Positions 40 to 54,941 of a stretch of DNA of 64,000 nt are shown here, piece by piece. The notes beneath the pieces are model-generated. The model was given only the letters and a program-made list of their open reading frames with translations, was not told the origin of the DNA and made no database searches. Position 1 is the first letter of the stretch, and the number at the start of each line of letters is the position of its first letter. The position numbers and the translations under genes were made by a program. This DNA is from a virus. The stretch spans positions 32,001 to 96,000 of IMG/VR virus record IMGVR_UViG_3300045988_180880; one strand, written 5' to 3'.

Positions 40-330
40 ATGTTAGAATTTTCTAGTAAATCTTATAAATGTACAAGGTTAGTAAAACCCATCGAAGTCT
101 TAGTAACTAATTGGGATGAAAAAAGTGATTATTCTCTTATTTTAAAAAGTAAAAATAAAAATCTAGTTTTCAAAAATTATCACATAAGATTTTTTCTACC
201 ATATCTTTTTGAAACGAGAGAAGAGTGTGTAGAAGCTTATAATGCAGTTGTTCAGGATCAAAAAGACAAACTTCAACATGATTATGAAGAAAGATTGAGA
301 TATTTAAATTCTAAAATAGAAAAATTATGA
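40..330 (+). CDS. hypothetical protein (paralog of 327..707)
   Basis: ORF track; ATGA overlap with next ORF; C-terminal ~35 aa share E-E-x-x-E-x-(Y/W)N..Q.Q.D.L..DYE....YLN.KI pattern with 327..707. Confidence 0.5.
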   Translation: MLEFSSKSYKCTRLVKPIEVLVTNWDEKSDYSLILKSKNKNLVFKNYHIRFFLPYLFETREECVEAYNAVVQDQKDKLQHDYEERLRYLNSKIEKL

Positions 331-707
331 AACAGCCAGAAACATATGAAGAACTTGATAAACTTATAGGACAAATATTCTGGACTTTTGGATTTTATAT
401 TGGTCCATACAGTTATAAATTTGAAAATATAAACTCCCCACAAGAAGTAGTTTTAGGGAAAGAGGAAAGATCTGGATATAGAGGAAACACTACCTGGTAT
501 CCTTTAAGAAACAAAACTACTAATATGATAGTTGGTTACTTTCAATTAATTCCTAATAGATATAATCTAGATAATTATAAATTATATGAATCAGAAGAGG
601 AAGCCATTGAAAGTTGGAATTCTATTATTCAAAATCAACTAGATCGATTAGAATTTGATTATGAGAAGAAAAAGAAATATTTAAATAAAAAGATTATTAA
701 AAAATGA
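327..707 (+). CDS. hypothetical protein (paralog of 40..330)
   Basis: ORF track; translationally coupled on both sides; shared C-terminal pattern with 40..330. Confidence 0.5.
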   Translation: MKQPETYEELDKLIGQIFWTFGFYIGPYSYKFENINSPQEVVLGKEERSGYRGNTTWYPLRNKTTNMIVGYFQLIPNRYNLDNYKLYESEEEAIESWNSIIQNQLDRLEFDYEKKKKYLNKKIIKK

Positions 708-1240
708 ATAAGATAATAATTGATGGATATTATAAAGAAAAGGAACACTTAGGAAAAATTTCAGGTATTATTTTTAAAAACTGGGAAGATAGTGAACCTA
801 TAGATAAAATTTCAATTATTATTAACAATTTCGATTCTTATATTCCTGGAGAATTTTATAAAAGAGAACTTCCTGGGATTGTAAAATTATTAGAAAATAT
901 AGATCTTGATAAATTCGATACAATCATATTAGATTCTCATGTTTGGTTGTGGAATGATGAAGAATCTTTTGAAAAACCTAAACCAGGACTAGGAGCACAT
1001 CTATATGAAAAACTTGGAAGAAAGAATCTTAATATTATTGGAATTGCAAAAAGTTATTACTGTGATAATAATATGCATACTTTTTCATGTTTTCGAGGAA
1101 ATAGTAAAAATCCTTTATATGTAGATTCAATTAATCAAGATAAAGATTATTCTGAAGTTATTAAAAGTATGTATGGAAATTTTAGAATACCATACCTTAT
1201 AAAATTAGCAGATACAGAATCAAAAATAAATTTCAAATGA
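704..1240 (+). CDS. endonuclease V-like protein
   Basis: YIPGEFYKRELP and GLGAHL...NIIGIAKS resemble EndoV blocks YxPGxLxFRExP and GxAxHxG...IGVAK; recalled from memory, no search run. Confidence 0.5.
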   Translation: MNKIIIDGYYKEKEHLGKISGIIFKNWEDSEPIDKISIIINNFDSYIPGEFYKRELPGIVKLLENIDLDKFDTIILDSHVWLWNDEESFEKPKPGLGAHLYEKLGRKNLNIIGIAKSYYCDNNMHTFSCFRGNSKNPLYVDSINQDKDYSEVIKSMYGNFRIPYLIKLADTESKINFK

Positions 1241-2253
1241 AAATGATTTATGCAATAGAACAATTACCCAAGAAAGAAGATACTTGGGTATTTTTGGGAG
1301 GACCTATTCAAGGAGCTCCAGAGTGGCAAGAAACAGTTCCAGATATTCAGGGAGTAACTTGGATAAACCCTAGAAGAAAAGAGAAAATTTCTGGAGGTTT
1401 ATCTGATGCTGAATATAAAAAACAGGTAGATTGGGAAACAATTGGACTTAGAGTATCAGATTTTATATTATTTTGGATCCCTGAAGCTGTTGAAGATATA
1501 CCAGGAAGAGATTATGCACAAACTACTAAAATCGAACTTACCGAAAATTTAGTTAGAAAGAAAAATATAATCTTAGGAATTGCGCCGAAAATACACGGAA
1601 GAAGGTACTTGATCGAAAAAGCTAAAGCATATGGAATAAAAAATGTATATAGCTCTTTAGACGAATGTATATCTGAGTTAAAGAAAGAAATATCTAATAG
1701 AGAGTCCAGTTCAAGAGAGTTTTTTACTTCCGATACACATTTCGGCGCAGAAAGAACTTTGGAATTATCTAAACGTCCTTTCATGAATGTTGAAGATATG
1801 GATTGGACTATGGTAGAGAGATGGAATACTAAAGTTCCTCCTAAAGCTATCGTATGGCATCTTGGAGATTTTGGTGATAGAAGTTACTTGAAATATTTAA
1901 ATGGAGATATTCGATTAGTTTGTGGAAATTATGAGATTAAAGAAAAATCTGAAAGAAATCTAGATATACCTGATTTTATAGGAGAGCTTATAGATTCTGG
2001 TTTTTCAAAAGTATTCCTAACTGAAGCAGAAACAAAACTCCTAGGAAAAGAGATAGCACTTGTACATGAACCTATGAATTCTACAAAAAAGTATAATCTT
2101 TTTGGACATATTCATGGAAGACAAATGATTAAGAGATTTGGATTAGATGTAGGTGTTGATGTTCATGGTTTTGCTCCTATGTCTGCAGAAGAGGTTGAAT
2201 TTTTCTTAAATGCACTAGAAAAAGGCTATTACGACGCTGAAGTATTTTGCTAG
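1237..2253 (+). CDS. fusion protein: nucleoside 2-deoxyribosyltransferase-like N-domain + calcineurin-like metallophosphoesterase
   Basis: C-half has SDTHFG, HLGDFGD, GNYE, VHEP, GHIHG metallophosphoesterase blocks; N-half VFLGGPIQG...ILFWIPE resembles NDT-like fold. Confidence 0.6.
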   Translation: MKMIYAIEQLPKKEDTWVFLGGPIQGAPEWQETVPDIQGVTWINPRRKEKISGGLSDAEYKKQVDWETIGLRVSDFILFWIPEAVEDIPGRDYAQTTKIELTENLVRKKNIILGIAPKIHGRRYLIEKAKAYGIKNVYSSLDECISELKKEISNRESSSREFFTSDTHFGAERTLELSKRPFMNVEDMDWTMVERWNTKVPPKAIVWHLGDFGDRSYLKYLNGDIRLVCGNYEIKEKSERNLDIPDFIGELIDSGFSKVFLTEAETKLLGKEIALVHEPMNSTKKYNLFGHIHGRQMIKRFGLDVGVDVHGFAPMSAEEVEFFLNALEKGYYDAEVFC

Positions 2254-2260
2254 TCTGATA

Positions 2261-2282
2261 TTCCTTGAAAGCCTTATAAGTG
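2261..2282 (+). promoter_or_regulatory. phage promoter-like motif (CTTATWWRTG class)
   Basis: ttccttgaaagccttataagtg, 32 nt upstream of ATG 2314; same motif recurs >20 times in front of genes on both strands. Confidence 0.55.
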
Positions 2283-2313
2283 AGAATAAAAACAAACTTA
2301 AAAGAAAAGGAAT

Positions 2314-2709
2314 ATGATAGAAAAACTTAACACACTAATGACAATATTAAGTGCATTAGGATTATTAAGAGACGGAGTAAAAAATTACATAGATGTCTCA
2401 GTTGAAAATAGTTTATCCAATGGAATAGTAGATAAACTAAAAGATAGTTATGACAACTATACAGCTATCTTAAACAAGTATGCGATTGAAGGAAAGGATT
2501 TTGATGTTCCTTCGATTAATAGAGATTACGTAATAAGAAAACTGCGATTAATAAAAACAATAGTAAACAGATTAGTCGAATATTATATCAATGAGCCAGA
2601 AACATTGAGAGATTATAAACAATCCCTCTATTTGATTGGCGCTGACATAGATAGTATATATCGAAAGTCTGTTGTTGATTATAAAACGTTTTTGCTTGCA
2701 GTTAAGTAA
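2314..2709 (+). CDS. hypothetical protein
   Basis: ORF track; preceded by promoter motif, followed by terminator. Confidence 0.5.
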   Translation: MIEKLNTLMTILSALGLLRDGVKNYIDVSVENSLSNGIVDKLKDSYDNYTAILNKYAIEGKDFDVPSINRDYVIRKLRLIKTIVNRLVEYYINEPETLRDYKQSLYLIGADIDSIYRKSVVDYKTFLLAVK

Positions 2710-2711
2710 GA

Positions 2712-2741
2712 AAAGGGTGGAATTACCCACCCTTTATTTTT
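2712..2741 (+). terminator. rho-independent terminator
   Basis: aaagggtgg / ccacccttt 9-bp stem, 6-nt loop, then T-rich run. Confidence 0.7.
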
Positions 2742-2760
2742 CCACCGTCTAGAAAAGACT

Positions 2761-2776
2761 AAAAACCTTATATATG
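2761..2776 (+). promoter_or_regulatory. phage promoter-like motif, no ORF downstream
   Basis: aaaaaccttatatatg; first of two tandem copies opening an ORF-free 0.9-kb stretch. Confidence 0.45.
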
Positions 2777-2830
2777 AAAGGAAAATAGAGTTCCTAAGAG
2801 GTTAAAATAATACCGTCTAAGAAACCCTAT

Positions 2831-2844
2831 TAGCCTTATATATG
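2831..2844 (+). promoter_or_regulatory. phage promoter-like motif, no ORF downstream
   Basis: tagccttatatatg; both copies preceded by accgtcta(g/a)gaaa. Confidence 0.45.
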
Positions 2845-3700
2845 TAATAAAAGATAGAAATATCTGATATTACCTAAAGACATAGTATATCTAATTTAAA
2901 AGATATATTATGTCTTTTATACTTTAGCGTTATACATAGATATAACTAGAACTTATAATACATACGAAAGGTGTGATGACGGAGTATTATAAGGAGAGAC
3001 TAGGAGTTGCTAACCTAGAAGTCGTCAGAACGACTTTATAAAATTCATCACCTTGATCTAACTTATAATTATGAAATATAATATAAGGACAGGTGGAAGT
3101 TGTTATACCACTTGAGTAGATATTTAAATAGTATTAAAATATCTTTTACAAGGATAAGTTCTGAGCGTAATTAAATAAGTATATTAAGTTACTATATTGA
3201 ATTATACTATTTATCAAAATAGAGAAAATACTTAATATAACTTAATAATTGATAAAGGTTGGACACATAACTTGGCAAGCACTAACAAATTATAATGTGC
3301 ATTTAGCTGAGTTTAACAAAATAAATTAAAATTAAATAAATTCCTTGTAATAGATGATATTATAAGGCCACGATATATTGAGATAAACCTGATAAAGGAT
3401 TATCAAGAGAAATATATCAAAGACATGTAGCCAAATATATGTGGTGAACTATGAAAATAATAAAGGACCTGTATAGTCTAGAGTTATTAGTAATAGGATG
3501 TGAATTTAGAGGGATTTAATATACAGTTAAATTATTATATATAACCTATGATAAATACCGATGAGGAAATTATAAAGATTATATATAATTCTAAGTTAGA
3601 AATCTTTAAGAGAGAAGCTTAGAGTAAAAACAACCATTTCTAAGTAAATTACTTAGAAAATAGAGACAAAAGAATATTAACAACAAAAAATTATAGAATT

Positions 3701-3826
3701 ATGAAAGCAGTTGTAAAAAACGTTGGAATTTTTGTAGCAGGAATAGCAGCAAAAGTAGTATTTGATTATGGTTATAAGAAAACTAAAAAATGTTTAAATA
3801 ACCGGAAAAACAAAAAAGCTGAATAA
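3701..3826 (+). CDS. small membrane protein (41 aa)
   Basis: ATG 3701..TAA 3826, MKAVVKNVGIFVAGIAAKVVF...; below ORF-track cutoff; its last 13 nt begin the 79-bp repeat that is also the 3' end of 3917..4153. Confidence 0.4.
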   Translation: MKAVVKNVGIFVAGIAAKVVFDYGYKKTKKCLNNRKNKKAE

Positions 3827-3892
3827 GCTAAAACAACCAGCCCGAGTTATGGATTAACTTGGGTTTAGAGACAATAATTAACAAAATTAATA
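3814..3892 (+). repeat. 79-bp direct repeat copy 1 (gene 3' end + terminator hairpin + next-gene leader)
   Basis: aaaagctgaataagctaaaacaaccagcccgagttatggattaacttgggtttagagacaataattaacaaaattaata identical at 4141-4219; contains hairpin cccgagtt/aacttggg. Confidence 0.85.
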
Positions 3893-3916
3893 ACTTAAAT
3901 AATAGGAGGAAAAATT

Positions 3917-4153
3917 ATGAAACTAATTAACTCAGCAGTAACGAAATTTGGTGCAACAAAAGTTGTAGCAGTAGCAGCTGGAGCAGGAATGGCATTAGGA
4001 GTAGCAACTACCTTAGGATGTCAAAAAGCCTATAAAAAACTCAAACCGAAAGGTCTTAGAGATGAGGATTTGGAAAAATTGGTAGAAGAAACCGTCAACC
4101 TAAAACCGGATGCAGAAAAAGAAAAACCTGCTGAAGAAGTAAAAGCTGAATAA
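3917..4153 (+). CDS. small membrane protein
   Basis: ORF track; hydrophobic N-half (VVAVAAGAGMALGVATTLG), K/E-rich tail; strong aggagg RBS. Confidence 0.55.
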   Translation: MKLINSAVTKFGATKVVAVAAGAGMALGVATTLGCQKAYKKLKPKGLRDEDLEKLVEETVNLKPDAEKEKPAEEVKAE

Positions 4154-4219
4154 GCTAAAACAACCAGCCCGAGTTATGGATTAACTTGGGTTTAGAGACA
4201 ATAATTAACAAAATTAATA
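4141..4219 (+). repeat. 79-bp direct repeat copy 2
   Basis: identical to 3814-3892. Confidence 0.85.
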
Positions 4220-4223
4220 TATT

Positions 4224-4412
4224 ATGAAAAAGATAACAGAAGTCATTATTTTTATGACAATGATATTAGCAGGAATTGCTTGGATATTAGGATTTGATAT
4301 AATTTATTCAATATCAGCAATAATTATGGGAACTACCGGAATTTATTATTGGTTTAGATATATGATTCCGGAACTATTTAACAGCAATGAAGAAGAATTC
4401 ATTGATGACTAA
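4224..4412 (+). CDS. small membrane protein
   Basis: ORF track; two hydrophobic segments. Confidence 0.5.
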   Translation: MKKITEVIIFMTMILAGIAWILGFDIIYSISAIIMGTTGIYYWFRYMIPELFNSNEEEFIDD

Positions 4413-4414
4413 CC

Positions 4415-4450
4415 GGAGGGATAACAAAATTTCCCTCCATTTTCATTTTT
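4415..4450 (+). terminator. rho-independent terminator
   Basis: ggaggga / tccctcc stem then attttcattttt; the T tract doubles as hammerhead stem III 5' strand. Confidence 0.6.
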
Positions 4451-4515
4451 GTAGTTAGGTGAATTCCTAACCTGATGAGATCACGAGGTTAAACTCAAGA
4501 TCGAAACAGAAATGG
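4443..4515 (+). ncRNA. type III hammerhead ribozyme motif
   Basis: Stem III tcatttttgt(4443-4452)/acagaaatgg(4506-4515); cleavage triplet GUA, cut after A4453; stem I gttagg-tgaatt-cctaac; core CTGATGA 4472-4478; stem II gatc..(gag/ctc)..gatc; core GAA 4503-4505; A15.1-U16.1 and C15.2-G16.2 present. Confidence 0.7.
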
Positions 4516-4581
4516 AAACTAAAGATTTCCTTTTGATTTTATATATCAAGAGACTATAACTAAACAAAAGGAAATTTACAA

Positions 4582-4640
4582 AGAAAAAAAAGAGGTCTTG
4601 ACTTTAATTAGTCAAGTTGATCCTCTTTTTATTTTTTTCT
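4582..4640. terminator. bidirectional terminator between convergent blocks
   Basis: A-run, compound hairpin agagg..cttgact ttaatt agtcaag..cctct, T-run. Confidence 0.6.
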
Positions 4641-4648
4641 TCAGAATG

Positions 4649-5095
4649 CTAAGGAATTTGATTTTGTAGCATATAAAATTCATTTTTTAACATATCAATT
4701 CTACATTTGATATCAGCTATTTCACTTGCTATATCACGTAGTGGAGAATTACAGAAAAATTCTTGATTACTATTCCAATAAATATTATTTCCTGTAATAA
4801 CACTATTAATATTAGTTATAGCTGTTTCTATATTATGTAATCTTTGCATTAAATTAAAATCTCCAAAGATTCTTTTATCTATAGTAGATACTAATCTCTC
4901 TTCATTATTTACTATTATCTCAGGATTATCCATTATTTTCTCTAGATAACCTCGAAGATAATTAATAACTATATCTAAAATCTCATCCGATTGTGCAGAG
5001 GATAGAATTTTTTCAACTACAGCTTTTACTACAGAATCAGAAATTTTGATATCATTACTTAATTCAATATTTGTATTACTCGTTTTCATTGCCAT
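4649..5095 (-). CDS. hypothetical protein
   Basis: ORF track; first gene of - block by coordinate; no motif recognised. Confidence 0.5.
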   Translation of the reverse strand: MAMKTSNTNIELSNDIKISDSVVKAVVEKILSSAQSDEILDIVINYLRGYLEKIMDNPEIIVNNEERLVSTIDKRIFGDFNLMQRLHNIETAITNINSVITGNNIYWNSNQEFFCNSPLRDIASEIADIKCRIDMLKNEFYMLQNQIP

Positions 5096-10410: not shown

Positions 10411-10781
10411 GTAAATTTTATATTATCTAAGTTTTTTACTAAATGTTTCAAATCATTCGCATAAGGACAATTTTTAGATCCTTGGATAAATGATTTTTTG
10501 AGTTCTTCTAGGTCAACACTAACTTCCTGAATGATTAAGCAATCGATCATATTTCTATATCGAAGATGTTCTAATAAAGAAGTATCATCACAAAATCGAA
10601 ATATACAAAATTTTCCAAGACAAGTTTTTACATAAATTTGTTTAGGAGTTATTCTCTTAGTCGCTAACCCATCTAAATTATATTCTAAAATAAAGTTCTC
10701 TCCAAGAATATTTCCACTAACAATTCCAATATCAGTTGATAATTCTTTTTGAAGTCTTCTGTAAAAACTAATCTTCACCAT
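10407..10781 (-). CDS. hypothetical protein, tandem paralog 1 of 3
   Basis: KRITPKQIYVKTCLGKFCIFRF; QEVSVDLEELKKSFIQGSK. Confidence 0.5.
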   Translation of the reverse strand: MVKISFYRRLQKELSTDIGIVSGNILGENFILEYNLDGLATKRITPKQIYVKTCLGKFCIFRFCDDTSLLEHLRYRNMIDCLIIQEVSVDLEELKKSFIQGSKNCPYANDLKHLVKNLDNIKFT

Positions 10782-11565
10782 CTCCAGTTCCTGCTTTAAT
10801 AGATAAAATAGGTTTAATAATTTCCAAAATTTTCACTGTATCTTGTATTCCAGTTATTATTTCAGAAGGATCTTTATATACCTCGGGCGCTTCATCAATA
10901 CAGGCGAGACATACAGAACTAGAATATACATTGCCCATACTTTCTTTAAATTCTTGGAGACTTAATCGTTCTCTTGCTTCTCGCCTAGACATTAAGCGCC
11001 CAGCACCATGAGGAGCACTATAATTTCTATCAGGATTACCAAGACCTTCACAAATTAAGGTTCCAAAAGCCATGTTCATAGGGATAATTACTTTCTGTCC
11101 GGCGTAAGCTTGAATAGATCCTTTTCTAATTATTCTATCTCTTGGATCTATATAATTATGAATAGACTCAATCCTCTCAAGCTCTTTTCCGAGTCCAAGA
11201 GCTTTTTTAATTCTCTCTGATATCACCATTCGATTATATTCTGCATAAGCTTGAGCAAAAAACATATCCCCGAGATAACCAGATATATCTTCATGTGTTA
11301 CTAAGAATCTACTAGGCGGAATTGTATATCGGCCGGAAGCATGAAGTTTTTCTATTTCTTCTTTGATTTTCTTCCCTTGACCTTTATACTTCTCCTTAAT
11401 TCCTCTCTCGGCCGCTTTCATATCCGCCTCAATTATCCTAGTTTTCCCAATTTGTTTTTTCCAATAAGCAAGTATTTTTATTCCTAAGTTTCTTGATCCT
11501 GTATGAATAGTAACCCAAACAGACTCTTTATCTTCTTCTACCTGTCCAAGTTCTATAAAATGATT
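10768..11565 (-). CDS. rtcB: RNA ligase RtcB, exon 2
   Basis: starts NHFIELGQ..; HTGSRNLG, APHGAGR blocks; the ORF-track Met at 11607 and its first 14 aa lie inside the intron. Confidence 0.85.
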   Translation of the reverse strand, partial: NHFIELGQVEEDKESVWVTIHTGSRNLGIKILAYWKKQIGKTRIIEADMKAAERGIKEKYKGQGKKIKEEIEKLHASGRYTIPPSRFLVTHEDISGYLGDMFFAQAYAEYNRMVISERIKKALGLGKELERIESIHNYIDPRDRIIRKGSIQAYAGQKVIIPMNMAFGTLICEGLGNPDRNYSAPHGAGRLMSRREARERLSLQEFKESMGNVYSSSVCLACIDEAPEVYKDPSEIITGIQDTVKILEIIKPILSIKAGTGDGED

Positions 11566-11815
11566 CAATTTTGTTACTAATACCTTTTCAAGTATTGGAT
11601 AGGTCATTTCTGCCTATCTCTAGTAGTTCTTTTTCCTACTAGTTCGGAGCACACCTTCTGACTTTTATGCCAGGCCAAGTCCCTCTGCTCTCTACGGGGG
11701 TATAAGTTTTAACACTATAACCTTCCCTCGGTGATTAGCATCTCAGCTTCTCCCGATATGGACGACTTTTACAACGAATGACTATTAATCATTCTGGAGG
11801 CAATCAATTTTTCTC
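11566..11815 (-). ncRNA. group I intron in rtcB (250 nt, ORF-less, GC-richer than surroundings)
   Basis: minus-strand P1 ggaggU / Gcctcc with U.G at the splice site; ends ..acaaaattG; splicing joins ..SLGTLGGG|NHFIEL, the RtcB GGGNHF block; exon lengths 1452 and 798 nt, both in frame. Confidence 0.8.
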
Positions 11816-13267
11816 ACCTCCACCAAGAGTTCCAAGAGATTTATAGAAAATTCCCTCAGACATACCAATTCTTTTAAGGGTTTTTGATATAAATTTCTCT
11901 ATCTCTCCAAGACCCTCATAACATACAAATTCAGGCCATAAACTTCTTGCTCTTTCAAGTTTTGTTTTAAAAAATTTCTTGAATTCTTTTTCTTGGATAA
12001 CAGTTTTCTCATTAATCTCCATACCCATTGGAATATCTCTACGAATTCTAGCATCCCAAAGAGCTAATTCTGGATCTCCCGAAGGCATTTTATATTTTAC
12101 ACTTAACATTCCACAATTACCAGTAATAAAAATTCTTCCATTTCTTCTACATACAAAATATCCAGTATCCGTGGTAAAACAATATTTAAATCCATCAATA
12201 GAAGGAACAATACTAGATTTTTTATTATAAGTAACTATTTTATTCCTAGCAGGACTCACATAATAAACTATATTCCATCTCTCTTTTCCTAAAATTTCTG
12301 AAATTCCTGCTCTAGTATTTGTAGCCGAAAATGCAAATTGAATTACATCTATATTATCTTTATTAGTATTTGAATAAGAACTTCTATATCCATTATGTCC
12401 ATCCCAAAGTAAACACTCTTCTTTTACTATTTCAAGTTGCTCTTTAGTAGCCAGATAATACTTTTTAAGATCTTTGTTTATTGAAAAATCTACATTAAAT
12501 CGTATAGAAGTAGATTTATCTTTTAATATTGAAATTTTATACTCAATATTAGCATCCTCTAATAATTTTTTTGCTCTTTCTATTTTTCTTTCTTTTCTAA
12601 AATGTAATTCTATTCTATTATGATCTTTAGCAGGTATTATCTTTCCATCCGCTTGTACCATAATATCTATTCTAATCATTTCATTGGACAAACTAACACC
12701 TGGGTTATTAGATATATTAAAACAAGTTTTAAATCCATAAAAACCTTTAGATAAATTGAGTTTATCTAATTCTATTGGAGTAATTTTTCTATGATTCAAT
12801 TTATGTCCCTTCCAATATCCAGAGTATACTAATAAATTATGTTCTGAACTAATCAATTGATCTAATCCACTTTTCTTATTATAATATTGATGAAATTCAG
12901 TACAAGGAGATTTTATATACTTTATAGGTTTTAAAAATTTTCCCTCATCCGTTTCCGGATCAAATTGCATAATCTCTTCATCAGCATAGTTAGATATTTT
13001 AATCCACCCAGTTGGTGTTAACACTTCTGTATCACAATCTAGACACGATATATCACAGCCAACTACATCAGGATCAAGAGGACCGCCAGAATAAGTTTGA
13101 GTATATCCTACTACGCAACCTTTCCCACAATGAACATCCTCCATAATCCTAACTGTTTCATTCTCAGTCATTTTAGTATTTAAAAGTTCGTAGACTTGAG
13201 AAACTGCTTCTGGTTCAATATTATCAGTAAAGACAATTGCTTTACCATATTTTCCTGTTATTTCCAT
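11816..13267 (-). CDS. rtcB: RNA ligase RtcB, exon 1 (contains intein)
   Basis: DVHCGKG, VGCDIS[intein]CGM, ends ..GTLGGG. Confidence 0.85.
12116..13045 (-). mobile_element. intein (310 aa) in the RtcB DI(G/S)-CGM active-site block
   Basis: starts CLDCDTEVLTPTGW (Cys1, block A), ends ..RIFITGN followed by extein Cys; large enough to hold an endonuclease domain. Confidence 0.75.
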
Positions 13268-14610: not shown

Positions 14611-14630
14611 CATATATAAGAATTTCAGGG
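14611..14630 (-). promoter_or_regulatory. phage promoter-like motif
   Basis: plus-strand 20-mer catatataagaatttcaggg identical to 55163-55182. Confidence 0.55.
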
Positions 14631-31940: not shown

Positions 31941-32354
31941 AATCTTCATATATTAGAATCTAAAGGATCCTAAAGAGCAAAATGTAACTTATTTATGAGG
32001 ACAAAGGAGCTTCCCTTATATTACACCCCTTTTCGCTACCGCTAGGGGTGTCTAAGGAAGAAACTTTGAATAGATATATAGAAAATAAACCCAGAAAATG
32101 AAGATGTTATAAAGATTTTATATTATTGATTTTCGCCTCTCCAAGGAGGCGAATCTAATCTAAATATTACAACTTTTTTTTAGGATAACATATTCTTTCA
32201 TTATTTGTATTTTTACTCCAATCTAAGTTGTTATTTTGCTCTTCTAATAACTTTAAACTCTAATTAATGAAAAAGGGAGACTCCTATGTCTTCATTTTTA
32301 TGTAACTGGATTCTGTATTGAATTAAAAAATAACAATTAAAATATTAAATATTT

Positions 32355-54867: not shown

Positions 54868-54941
54868 TGGGCCCAGCCAGGCTTGAACTGACGACCTTCT
54901 GATTATGAGTCAGCTTCTCTAACCAACTGAGATATGGGCCC
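54868..54941 (-). tRNA. tRNA with CAU anticodon (Met, or Ile if lysidine-modified)
   Basis: minus strand gggcccatatctcagttggttagagaagctgactCATaatcagaaggtcgtcagttcaagcctggctgggccca; 7-bp acceptor, GTTCAAG T-loop. Confidence 0.85.

Follow-up and report, generated by a model that had tools for sequence, protein, structure and literature searches.

A type III hammerhead ribozyme downstream of a terminator-like hairpin in a human-gut jumbo phage and its putative role at the 3′ end of a short transcription unit

In the DNA stretch analyzed here (64,000 nucleotides, positions 32,001 to 96,000 of the virus record IMGVR_UViG_3300045988_180880 in IMG/VR; hereafter the window), a hammerhead-like sequence is located at positions 4440-4518 of the plus strand, directly behind a terminator-like hairpin. 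The host is an uncultured phage of ~370 kb from the human gut. A self-cleaving RNA at such a place raises two questions, namely whether the sequence is a genuine ribozyme and which of the RNAs on the two sides of the predicted cut it would serve. The original prediction described a canonical type III hammerhead that occurs once in the window and cuts after A4453, and proposed that termination and self-cleavage are alternative folds of one switch.

Anatomy, scores and conservation of the hammerhead

The element at 4440-4518 is a complete type III hammerhead in which all core nucleotides are canonical, as is borne out by the sequence, the minimum free energy (MFE) structure, a descriptor search and a covariance model. 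The 5′ strand of stem III is the U-rich tract UUUUCAUUUUUGU at 4440-4452 (positions 16.13-16.1 in hammerhead numbering). Its 3′ strand at 4506-4518 starts with A15.1 and includes an AUG at 4512-4514. The two strands (t4440-t4452 with a4506-a4518) form 13 bp, two of them G-U; this stem had correctly been described as open, but its length had been given as 10 bp. The cleavage triplet GUA is found at 4451-4453 (G16.2, U16.1, A17), and the hammerhead numbering on the fold places the predicted self-cleavage 3′ of A17 (4453), between 4453 and 4454, which is the cut named originally. The A15.1-U16.1 pair is a4506-t4452 and position 17 is not a G, as the hammerhead class requires.

Stem-loop I (4454-4471) consists of 6 bp (4454-4459 with 4466-4471) and the loop UGAAUU. 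It is followed by the core strand CUGAUGA at 4472-4478 (C3 U4 G5 A6 U7 G8 A9), stem-loop II at 4479-4502 and the core strand GAA at 4503-4505 (G12 A13 A14), and both core strands are invariant in all relatives. The proximal helix of stem II is formed by GAUC at 4479-4482 and GAUC at 4499-4502, with the canonical G10.1-C11.1 pair first. Beyond this helix, a 2 × 2 internal loop, a second helix (GAG at 4485-4487 with CUC at 4494-4496) and the loop GUUAAA were identified. Stems I and II are closed by loops and stem III is open, giving the three-helix junction that type III requires. When positions 4438-4520 were folded alone, both the MFE and the centroid structure corresponded to the hammerhead junction. 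The MFE was -24.1 kcal/mol (z = -4.0), and none of 200 shuffled sequences was equally stable.

Both strands of the window were searched with an own type III descriptor, defined by CUGANGA, GAAA, U16.1, H17 and three helices. The site at 4440-4518 was the only match on either strand; the covariance model and Rfam scans likewise agree with the single copy originally reported. In 300 dinucleotide-preserving shuffles of the window, 22 matches in 20 shuffles were obtained with stems of at least 3 bp and none with stems of at least 4 bp, the stems of the real site being 6, 4 and 13 bp long.

A covariance model (R1) was built from an alignment (A3) of 11 type III hammerheads of unrelated viral contigs, and the entire window was searched with filters off. 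The site was aligned over its full length with a score of 46.3 bits (E-value 2.6e-9), a few bits of which are circular since the seeds were found with a pattern that fixes the GAUC stem II shared with the target. The next best score in the window was 13.7 bits. At the gathering thresholds of Rfam, no hammerhead was found in the whole window, a tRNA being the sole match, and no hammerhead was reported in a scan of 271 nucleotides (nt) around the site at E ≤ 10. In an 87-nt scan, the Rfam hammerhead model RF00008 matched the site in the correct register (4450-4508) with 16.8 bits compared to a gathering score of 48.5 bits; standard annotation therefore misses this hammerhead. A covariance model search had been suggested as a check of the original prediction. 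By RF00008 this check is formally failed, whereas model R1 supports the assignment. We ascribe the low RF00008 score to that model, in which the loop sizes, the length of stem II and the A/U-rich helices are penalised, rather than to the RNA itself, given the 46.3 bits obtained with a model made from unrelated phage type III hammerheads.

The hammerhead was found in two lineages of human-gut jumbo-phage contigs of up to 378 kb, comprising ~25 contigs. A pattern scan of IMG/VR resulted in 75 loci, 14 of which contain the same ribozyme (contigs of 166-378 kb; one of them, L070, with C4484U) and two of which, L003 and L008, contain a variant. With a second pattern, in which stem II was freed, the same 16 loci were recovered plus L090, a pattern match without stem I. 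A metagenome scan added six contigs of the window type and one of the L003 type; several are labelled human gut and the longest has 371,686 bp. No copy was detected in the prokaryote assemblies with one genome per species (GTDB, 596 Gb), hence these gave no prophage or host clue, and GenBank phages showed no match to the hammerhead locus in near and distant searches. A search for related loci with the 62-aa open reading frame (ORF) upstream of the hammerhead returned near-identical contigs only. A neighbouring phosphoesterase has remote relatives only, the best with 34% in an uncultured phage of 462 kb.

Around the site, identity to the window is 92.5-99.7% for contigs of the window type and ~78% for the L003 lineage. 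The 62-aa ORF (4224-4412) contains many differences between the lineages, with a nucleotide identity of ~78% to the L003/L008 homologue. From the stop codon of this ORF to position ~4576, the sequence is nearly unchanged between the lineages; this module comprises the hairpin in front of the ribozyme (T1), the hammerhead and a second hairpin behind it (hairpin 2). Compared to the window, the flanking genes of contig L087 mostly carry 4-12 (up to 26) differences per 150 nt, and the range 4396-4574 carries none.

The changes that do occur in the hammerhead preserve its fold. The stem I pair G4458-C4467 is replaced by A-U in L003, L008 and L118, which is compensatory, and in the L003 lineage the distal GAG/CUC helix of stem II is exchanged for the 5-bp helix UGAUA/UAUCA, so that pairing is kept. 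At its outer end, stem III has in addition lost 2 nt in this lineage. Changes in single contigs are C4484U, which adds a pair in the internal loop of stem II, and U4489C in loop II (L102). For all four sequence variants, the MFE and centroid structures are the hammerhead junction. A tertiary contact between loops I and II is needed for fast hammerhead cleavage at physiological Mg2+. Here, loop I (UGAAUU) and the GUU that opens loop II are kept in both lineages, and three pairs between them are possible by inspection; the U4489C of L102 would disrupt this pairing. Judging from these sequences, the hammerhead is statistically significant and selectively maintained.

It could be argued that the site is a chance hammerhead-like sequence in a region that is conserved for another reason, as a terminator or as a site acting at the DNA level. 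The score below the Rfam gathering threshold would fit such an explanation, and so would the mostly invariant module, as conservation alone cannot tell constraint on RNA from constraint on DNA. However, not one of the 300 shuffles produced even the much weaker motif with stems of at least 4 bp, and an independent covariance model returned the E-value of 2.6e-9. The same primary-sequence pattern gave 14 matches in the 596 Gb of prokaryote genomes, and in none of them is there a second adequate helix (a 4-bp stem II occurs once, and stem I never exceeds 3 bp); the changes between the lineages are exactly those that keep the hammerhead helices. A chance origin is thus extremely improbable, and we conclude that 4440-4518 is a genuine, proper hammerhead. 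With the exception of a score above the Rfam threshold, it shows every sequence and structure feature by which membership of the class can be tested; its catalysis is predicted, and the contact between loops I and II is putative.

The terminator-like hairpin and the 3′ end of the upstream message

The ribozyme lies directly after a terminator-like hairpin, as the original prediction had it. This hairpin, T1 (4415-4438, plus strand), starts 2 nt behind the stop codon of the 62-aa ORF and consists of a GC-rich 7-bp stem (GGAGGGA/UCCCUCC), which is invariant in all relatives, and a 10-nt loop. Its folding energy is -13.2 kcal/mol. T1 is directly followed by the U-rich tract AUUUUCAUUUUU, which doubles as the 5′ strand of stem III, and the 3′ end of the hairpin is located 15 nt before the predicted cut. 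T1 was not listed by the terminator scan, which is limited to loops of 8 nt.

From this overlap, the original prediction derived a regulated switch of 3′-end processing in which termination at T1 and folding of the ribozyme exclude each other. The U-rich tail of T1 is indeed physically the 5′ strand of stem III, and the overlap is conserved in both lineages. Nevertheless, the U-tract is unpaired in a terminator, so that the helices do not compete for any base: T1 and the hammerhead share no paired bases, and T1 and the complete hammerhead coexist in both the MFE and the centroid structures of the 236-nt context (4405-4640) and of the 251-nt context in L003. No conserved alternative pairing was found; the complementarity between the T1 loop (ACAAAA) and the U-tract is weakened by an A-to-C change in L003. 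A ligand- or protein-binding element is not evident either. The exclusivity is trivial only, in that a transcript ending in the U-tract never contains the ribozyme, and a switch between the two folds is very improbable.

The arrangement is better described by the unit to which the ribozyme belongs. Behind a terminator at 2712-2735, which closes the preceding operon, the plus strand carries promoter-like motifs (near 2767 and 2835), an ORF-free leader of ~850 nt and three ORFs for small hydrophobic, putative membrane proteins (3701-3826, 3917-4153 and 4224-4412). The last of these, the 62-aa ORF, ends at 4412 and has no match in Pfam or PHROG. We consider it likely, with a probability of roughly 0.7, that the genuine type III hammerhead is located in the 3′ untranslated end of this short unit and gives the upstream mRNA its 3′ end.

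According to hammerhead chemistry, a transcript that extends past ~4518 can cut itself after A4453, leaving a 2′,3′-cyclic phosphate on the upstream and a 5′-OH on the downstream product. RNA polymerase that passes T1 and its U-rich tail would allow the ribozyme to fold, with the tail as one strand of stem III, and the ribozyme would then cut after A4453. The first product would be the upstream mRNA ending in the T1 hairpin and a 15-nt tail with a 2′,3′-cyclic phosphate. The second would be a 5′-OH RNA of ~175-185 nt, which would consist of the ribozyme body, hairpin 2 and a further terminator, T2. As the 3′-terminal hairpin of the upstream product, T1 would make a poor substrate for 3′ exonucleases and polyadenylation. 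The effect would be 3′-end maturation or insulation, by which the mRNA of the small ORFs is separated from downstream sequence. We infer in this way that the hammerhead is transcribed, is active and has such an effect on the 3′ end.

For comparison, other viral type III hammerheads were surveyed. Two pattern scans resulted in at least 39 descriptor-recovered type III clusters including the family of the window, a sample that is shaped by the search patterns; the loci (L134-L236 and L010-L069) are on viral contigs. A hairpin was counted if its stem had 5 or more bp, 3 or more of them G-C, and if it ended no more than 25 nt upstream of the cut, before stem III. Among the matches listed, such a hairpin is present in 21 of the 38 other clusters compared to 286 of 1,560 random positions of the same loci (18%; Fisher p = 6e-7). 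A T-rich tail after the hairpin was found in 3 of these 38 listed clusters and at 11 of the 1,560 random positions (p = 0.004). T-runs after the hairpin occur in L022, L153 and L228 according to the survey and in L060 by eye. As a side observation, L153 contains two such ribozymes ~400 nt apart, with T-rich stem III strands.

Concerning the genes around these ribozymes, 28 of the 33 listed clusters with enough flanking sequence have the start of an ORF of 50 aa or more no further than 60 nt, and typically 14-31 nt, behind stem III, and an upstream ORF ends within 150 nt in 23 of the 33. This suggests a usual layout of gene, hairpin, ribozyme, ribosome-binding site and gene. The window element has the first half of this layout, the hairpin within 25 nt before the cut, but not the second half with its downstream ORF. 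That unrelated viral type III hammerheads repeatedly have a hairpin immediately 5′ of stem III fits the reading as a 3′-end maturation element.

Several points weigh against the proposed role. It depends on cleavage and transcription, both of which we infer. The RF00008 score is far under the gathering score, and part of the R1 score is circular. The relatives belong to two lineages only, so covariation is thin, and the invariant stem III and proximal stem II are uninformative. The hairpin frequency was compared to random positions, a lenient control, rather than to intergenic regions free of hammerheads. If termination at T1 is efficient, little ribozyme-containing RNA would be left. Stem III is long and, by the calculated energy of the duplex between its 3′ strand and 4439-4453 (-12.3 kcal/mol), fairly stable, so the products may stay annealed, be released slowly and could re-ligate. 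Of the duplex energies calculated, those of the window and of L003 refer to actual sequences, and the others, for approximated strands, were left out of consideration. Finally, the window hammerhead differs from most of the surveyed clusters in that the 60 nt behind it contain no start of an ORF of 50 aa or more, and a role in cutting just ahead of the next gene is for this reason not obviously applicable.

The downstream RNA, the surrounding cassette and neighbouring genes

The sequence behind the ribozyme is conserved as well. Hairpin 2 (4523-4577, plus strand) has a 13-bp A/U-rich stem and a 29-nt loop according to the folds and is conserved together with the hammerhead. Its stem is held by different end pairs in the two lineages, so that the stem ends slide. 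The loop and the 3′ half repeat the leader motif AGAGACWAUAA that is found before the small ORFs; in DNA, AGAGACWATAA has three exact copies in the 64 kb, in hairpin 2 and before the small ORFs at 3867 and 4194. Hairpin 2 is followed by T2 (4590-4638), which was identified by the terminator scan and the fold as a hairpin between an A-run and a T-run and is usable on both strands. T2 ends both the plus-strand unit and the convergent minus-strand genes that begin at 4649. In L003 the T2 sequence is not kept, and another hairpin occupies the corresponding position. In the fold of the 236-nt context, T1, the hammerhead, hairpin 2 and T2 stand side by side, and the L003 homologue folds likewise.

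Such conservation would fit a ribozyme that serves its downstream product, either a conserved small RNA with a 5′-OH end or the mRNA of a mini-ORF, and not the upstream mRNA. The RNA would contain the ribozyme body, a single-stranded A-rich stretch, hairpin 2 and T2, and might act as a regulatory RNA or as a decoy for a protein. Conservation runs ~58 nt past the ribozyme, through hairpin 2, and then stops. Furthermore, a viral type III hammerhead is normally the 5′ end of the downstream message, because a start codon follows within 60 nt in the 28 of 33 listed clusters mentioned above. The mini-ORF (4512-4559, plus strand) starts at the AUG in stem III and encodes METKDFLLILYIKRL (15 aa), or METKDFLLMILYIKMRQ in the L003 version. 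Both of its indels between the lineages are 3 nt long and in frame, and the AUG region is unpaired in the fold of the cleaved 3′ product.

On the other hand, no Shine-Dalgarno sequence precedes the AUG at 4512, and an open frame of 15 codons is unremarkable in DNA with 29% GC. Since all substitutions in the mini-ORF are non-synonymous or indels and the last residue varies (L, P or Q), the constraint looks like one on the RNA and not on the peptide. The mini-ORF (15-17 codons) was accordingly rejected as a coding gene, which is unlikely in view of the missing Shine-Dalgarno sequence and synonymous variation, although the frame is kept. For a small RNA, no target or partner was identified. A role for the downstream product is also compatible with the function at the upstream 3′ end, as the same cut makes both products. 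As the sole purpose of the ribozyme it is possible, though unlikely. Because of the conservation of hairpin 2, the leader motif and the usual 5′ position of viral hammerheads, a function of the downstream RNA is nevertheless a serious alternative or addition to the maturation of the upstream mRNA.

A more far-reaching version of this idea, which we regard as doubtful, is that the pair of hairpin and hammerhead is a general phage device whose usual cut just in front of a gene has here been converted to the release of a free-standing RNA. Transcripts that run past T1 would then be processed to a hairpin-capped mRNA and a conserved 5′-OH small RNA, and the latter, with its leader motif AGAGACWAUAA, might be a decoy or regulator of small-ORF expression. 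The RtcB ligase of the phage could in principle reverse the cut.

RtcB seals 2′,3′-cyclic phosphate and 5′-OH ends, which are the ends made by a hammerhead. In the window, the RtcB RNA ligase gene is split into two ORFs on the minus strand (10768-13267). The ORF at 11804-13267 covers positions 13-53 of the Pfam RtcB profile and contains, by eye, an intein-like insert, with the end ...GTLGGGEKN*. The ORF at 10768-11607 covers profile positions 154-425, with NHFIEL ~14 aa past its ATG. The break of ~250 nt lies, by eye, inside the conserved motif GGGNHF, which suggests an intron-like insertion; an Rfam scan of the gap found nothing. A functional link between RtcB and the hammerhead would be chemically apt, but was set aside as being without supporting evidence.

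The place at which conservation ends also bears on a different explanation, in which the small-ORF unit is a mobile or exchangeable cassette and the hammerhead at its end a relic of transfer instead of a working part. The synteny with L003 covers ~200 to 4576 of the window and stops immediately after hairpin 2. The unit also contains an internal direct repeat of 79-84 nt, and the relative L001 is without the segment between the copies. Hammerheads that flank accessory genes in prophages are known (PMC3088659). However, with a single ribozyme nothing could be excised as RNA, and the unit is not flanked by an integrase, a transposase or terminal repeats. The ribozyme itself is, moreover, under strong purifying selection, which argues for a current function, and we regard a relic as quite improbable.

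The genes that follow the module in L003 run in the same direction as the ribozyme. It follows that the position at the boundary of convergent gene blocks, to which the original prediction had tied the element, characterises the window genome and not the element.

The two copies of the direct repeat (3814-3897 and 4141-4224) are 98-100% identical. Each covers the final codons of one small ORF (…KAE*), then a hairpin CCCGAGTT/AACTTGGG and then the leader belonging to the small ORF that follows. Since the three small ORFs also share the internal motif TAGCAGGAATNGC, they look like tandem paralogues.

The promoter-like motif pair ACCGTCTnAGAAA ... CTTATATATG was found at 2744-2784 and 2812-2852, with ACCGTCTnAGAAA preceding CTTATATATG at 2744 and 2812, and in L003 two copies of the pair follow the hammerhead module, in front of the next genes. 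The decamer CTTATATATG has 7 copies in the window, at 2767, 2835, 30902 and 31558 on the plus strand and at 14611, 22910 and 55164 on the minus strand. Several of these are near changes of coding strand as seen in the GC skew, and one is located just upstream of a tRNA gene (54868-54941, minus strand; anticodon loop CUCAUAA with the anticodon CAU; 62.9 bits), the lone match at the Rfam gathering threshold in the window. The decamer together with ACCGTCTnAGAAA is a candidate phage promoter. No copy of CTTATATATG was found between T1 and the ribozyme, and there is thus no sign of a separate promoter for the ribozyme RNA. A sigma-70-like match on the minus strand inside hairpin 2 was at chance level and was rejected.

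The ORF-free stretch at 2860-3700 (plus strand) is conserved with L003 at the nucleotide level, with tblastx matches in every frame. It also varies less than the flanking genes in L087, for which 0-3 differences per 150 nt were counted over 2874-3620 compared to 5-10 upstream. The stretch may be a structured leader or a non-coding RNA; no match was found in an Rfam scan at E ≤ 1.

Relation to known hammerheads and significance

The element resembles RF00008 (clan CL00010) in the CUGAUGA ... GAA core, the A15.1-U16.1 pair, the non-G at position 17 and the three-way junction. It differs in its long stem II (24 nt including the internal loop and the distal helix), in the A/U-rich 13-bp helix of stem III and in the triplet GUA instead of the commoner GUC. 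Furthermore, its host is a dsDNA jumbo phage and not a viroid, a satellite RNA or a eukaryotic repeat.

Hammerheads in intergenic regions of phages and prophages have been described and shown to cleave, including arrangements of several ribozymes around accessory genes (Perreault et al. 2011, PMC3088659). In a 2019 review, their role in phages, possibly in mRNA processing or in effects on the 3′-UTR (untranslated region), is called still undefined (PMC6765202). The window element is similar to the hammerheads of these two studies in its location in a phage genome, between genes and on the sense strand of a gene cluster, and in its presumed function in mRNA processing. It adjoins a terminator-like hairpin, whereas a terminator is mentioned in neither report and the word is absent from PMC3088659. 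In addition, the hammerheads tested there flank or precede genes, whereas the one in the window precedes a conserved non-coding hairpin and a terminator.

Among the hammerheads on other viral contigs, an upstream ORF that stops tens of nucleotides before the ribozyme, as in the window, was found, for example, for L135, L140, L143, L151, L022, L060 and L153. Their stem III, among the matches listed, usually has 4-7 bp compared to 13 bp in the window. Engineered insulators and 3′-UTR ribozymes (RiboJ-type parts; twister reporters, PMC6765202) are similar in that a self-cleaving RNA sets a transcript end independent of the flanking sequence. These parts are synthetic, whereas the window element is natural and such a function is putative. 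In full-text literature searches, no report of a hammerhead coupled to an intrinsic terminator or located in a jumbo phage was found.

The hammerhead adds a new example to a known kind of phage element and does not represent a new mechanism. It is peculiar in two modest respects: it is fused to a terminator-like hairpin, and the place of a downstream gene is taken by a conserved non-coding hairpin. The survey suggests a usual layout among the matches listed, in which the ribozyme has a hairpin directly in front of it and a start codon 14-31 nt behind it, and a firm statement needs a proper control. That the Rfam thresholds miss the window hammerhead means that A/U-rich, long-stem phage hammerheads are under-annotated. 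The position of the ribozyme gives a testable hypothesis for these phages, namely that it would set the 3′ end of the upstream message, free a small RNA, or both.

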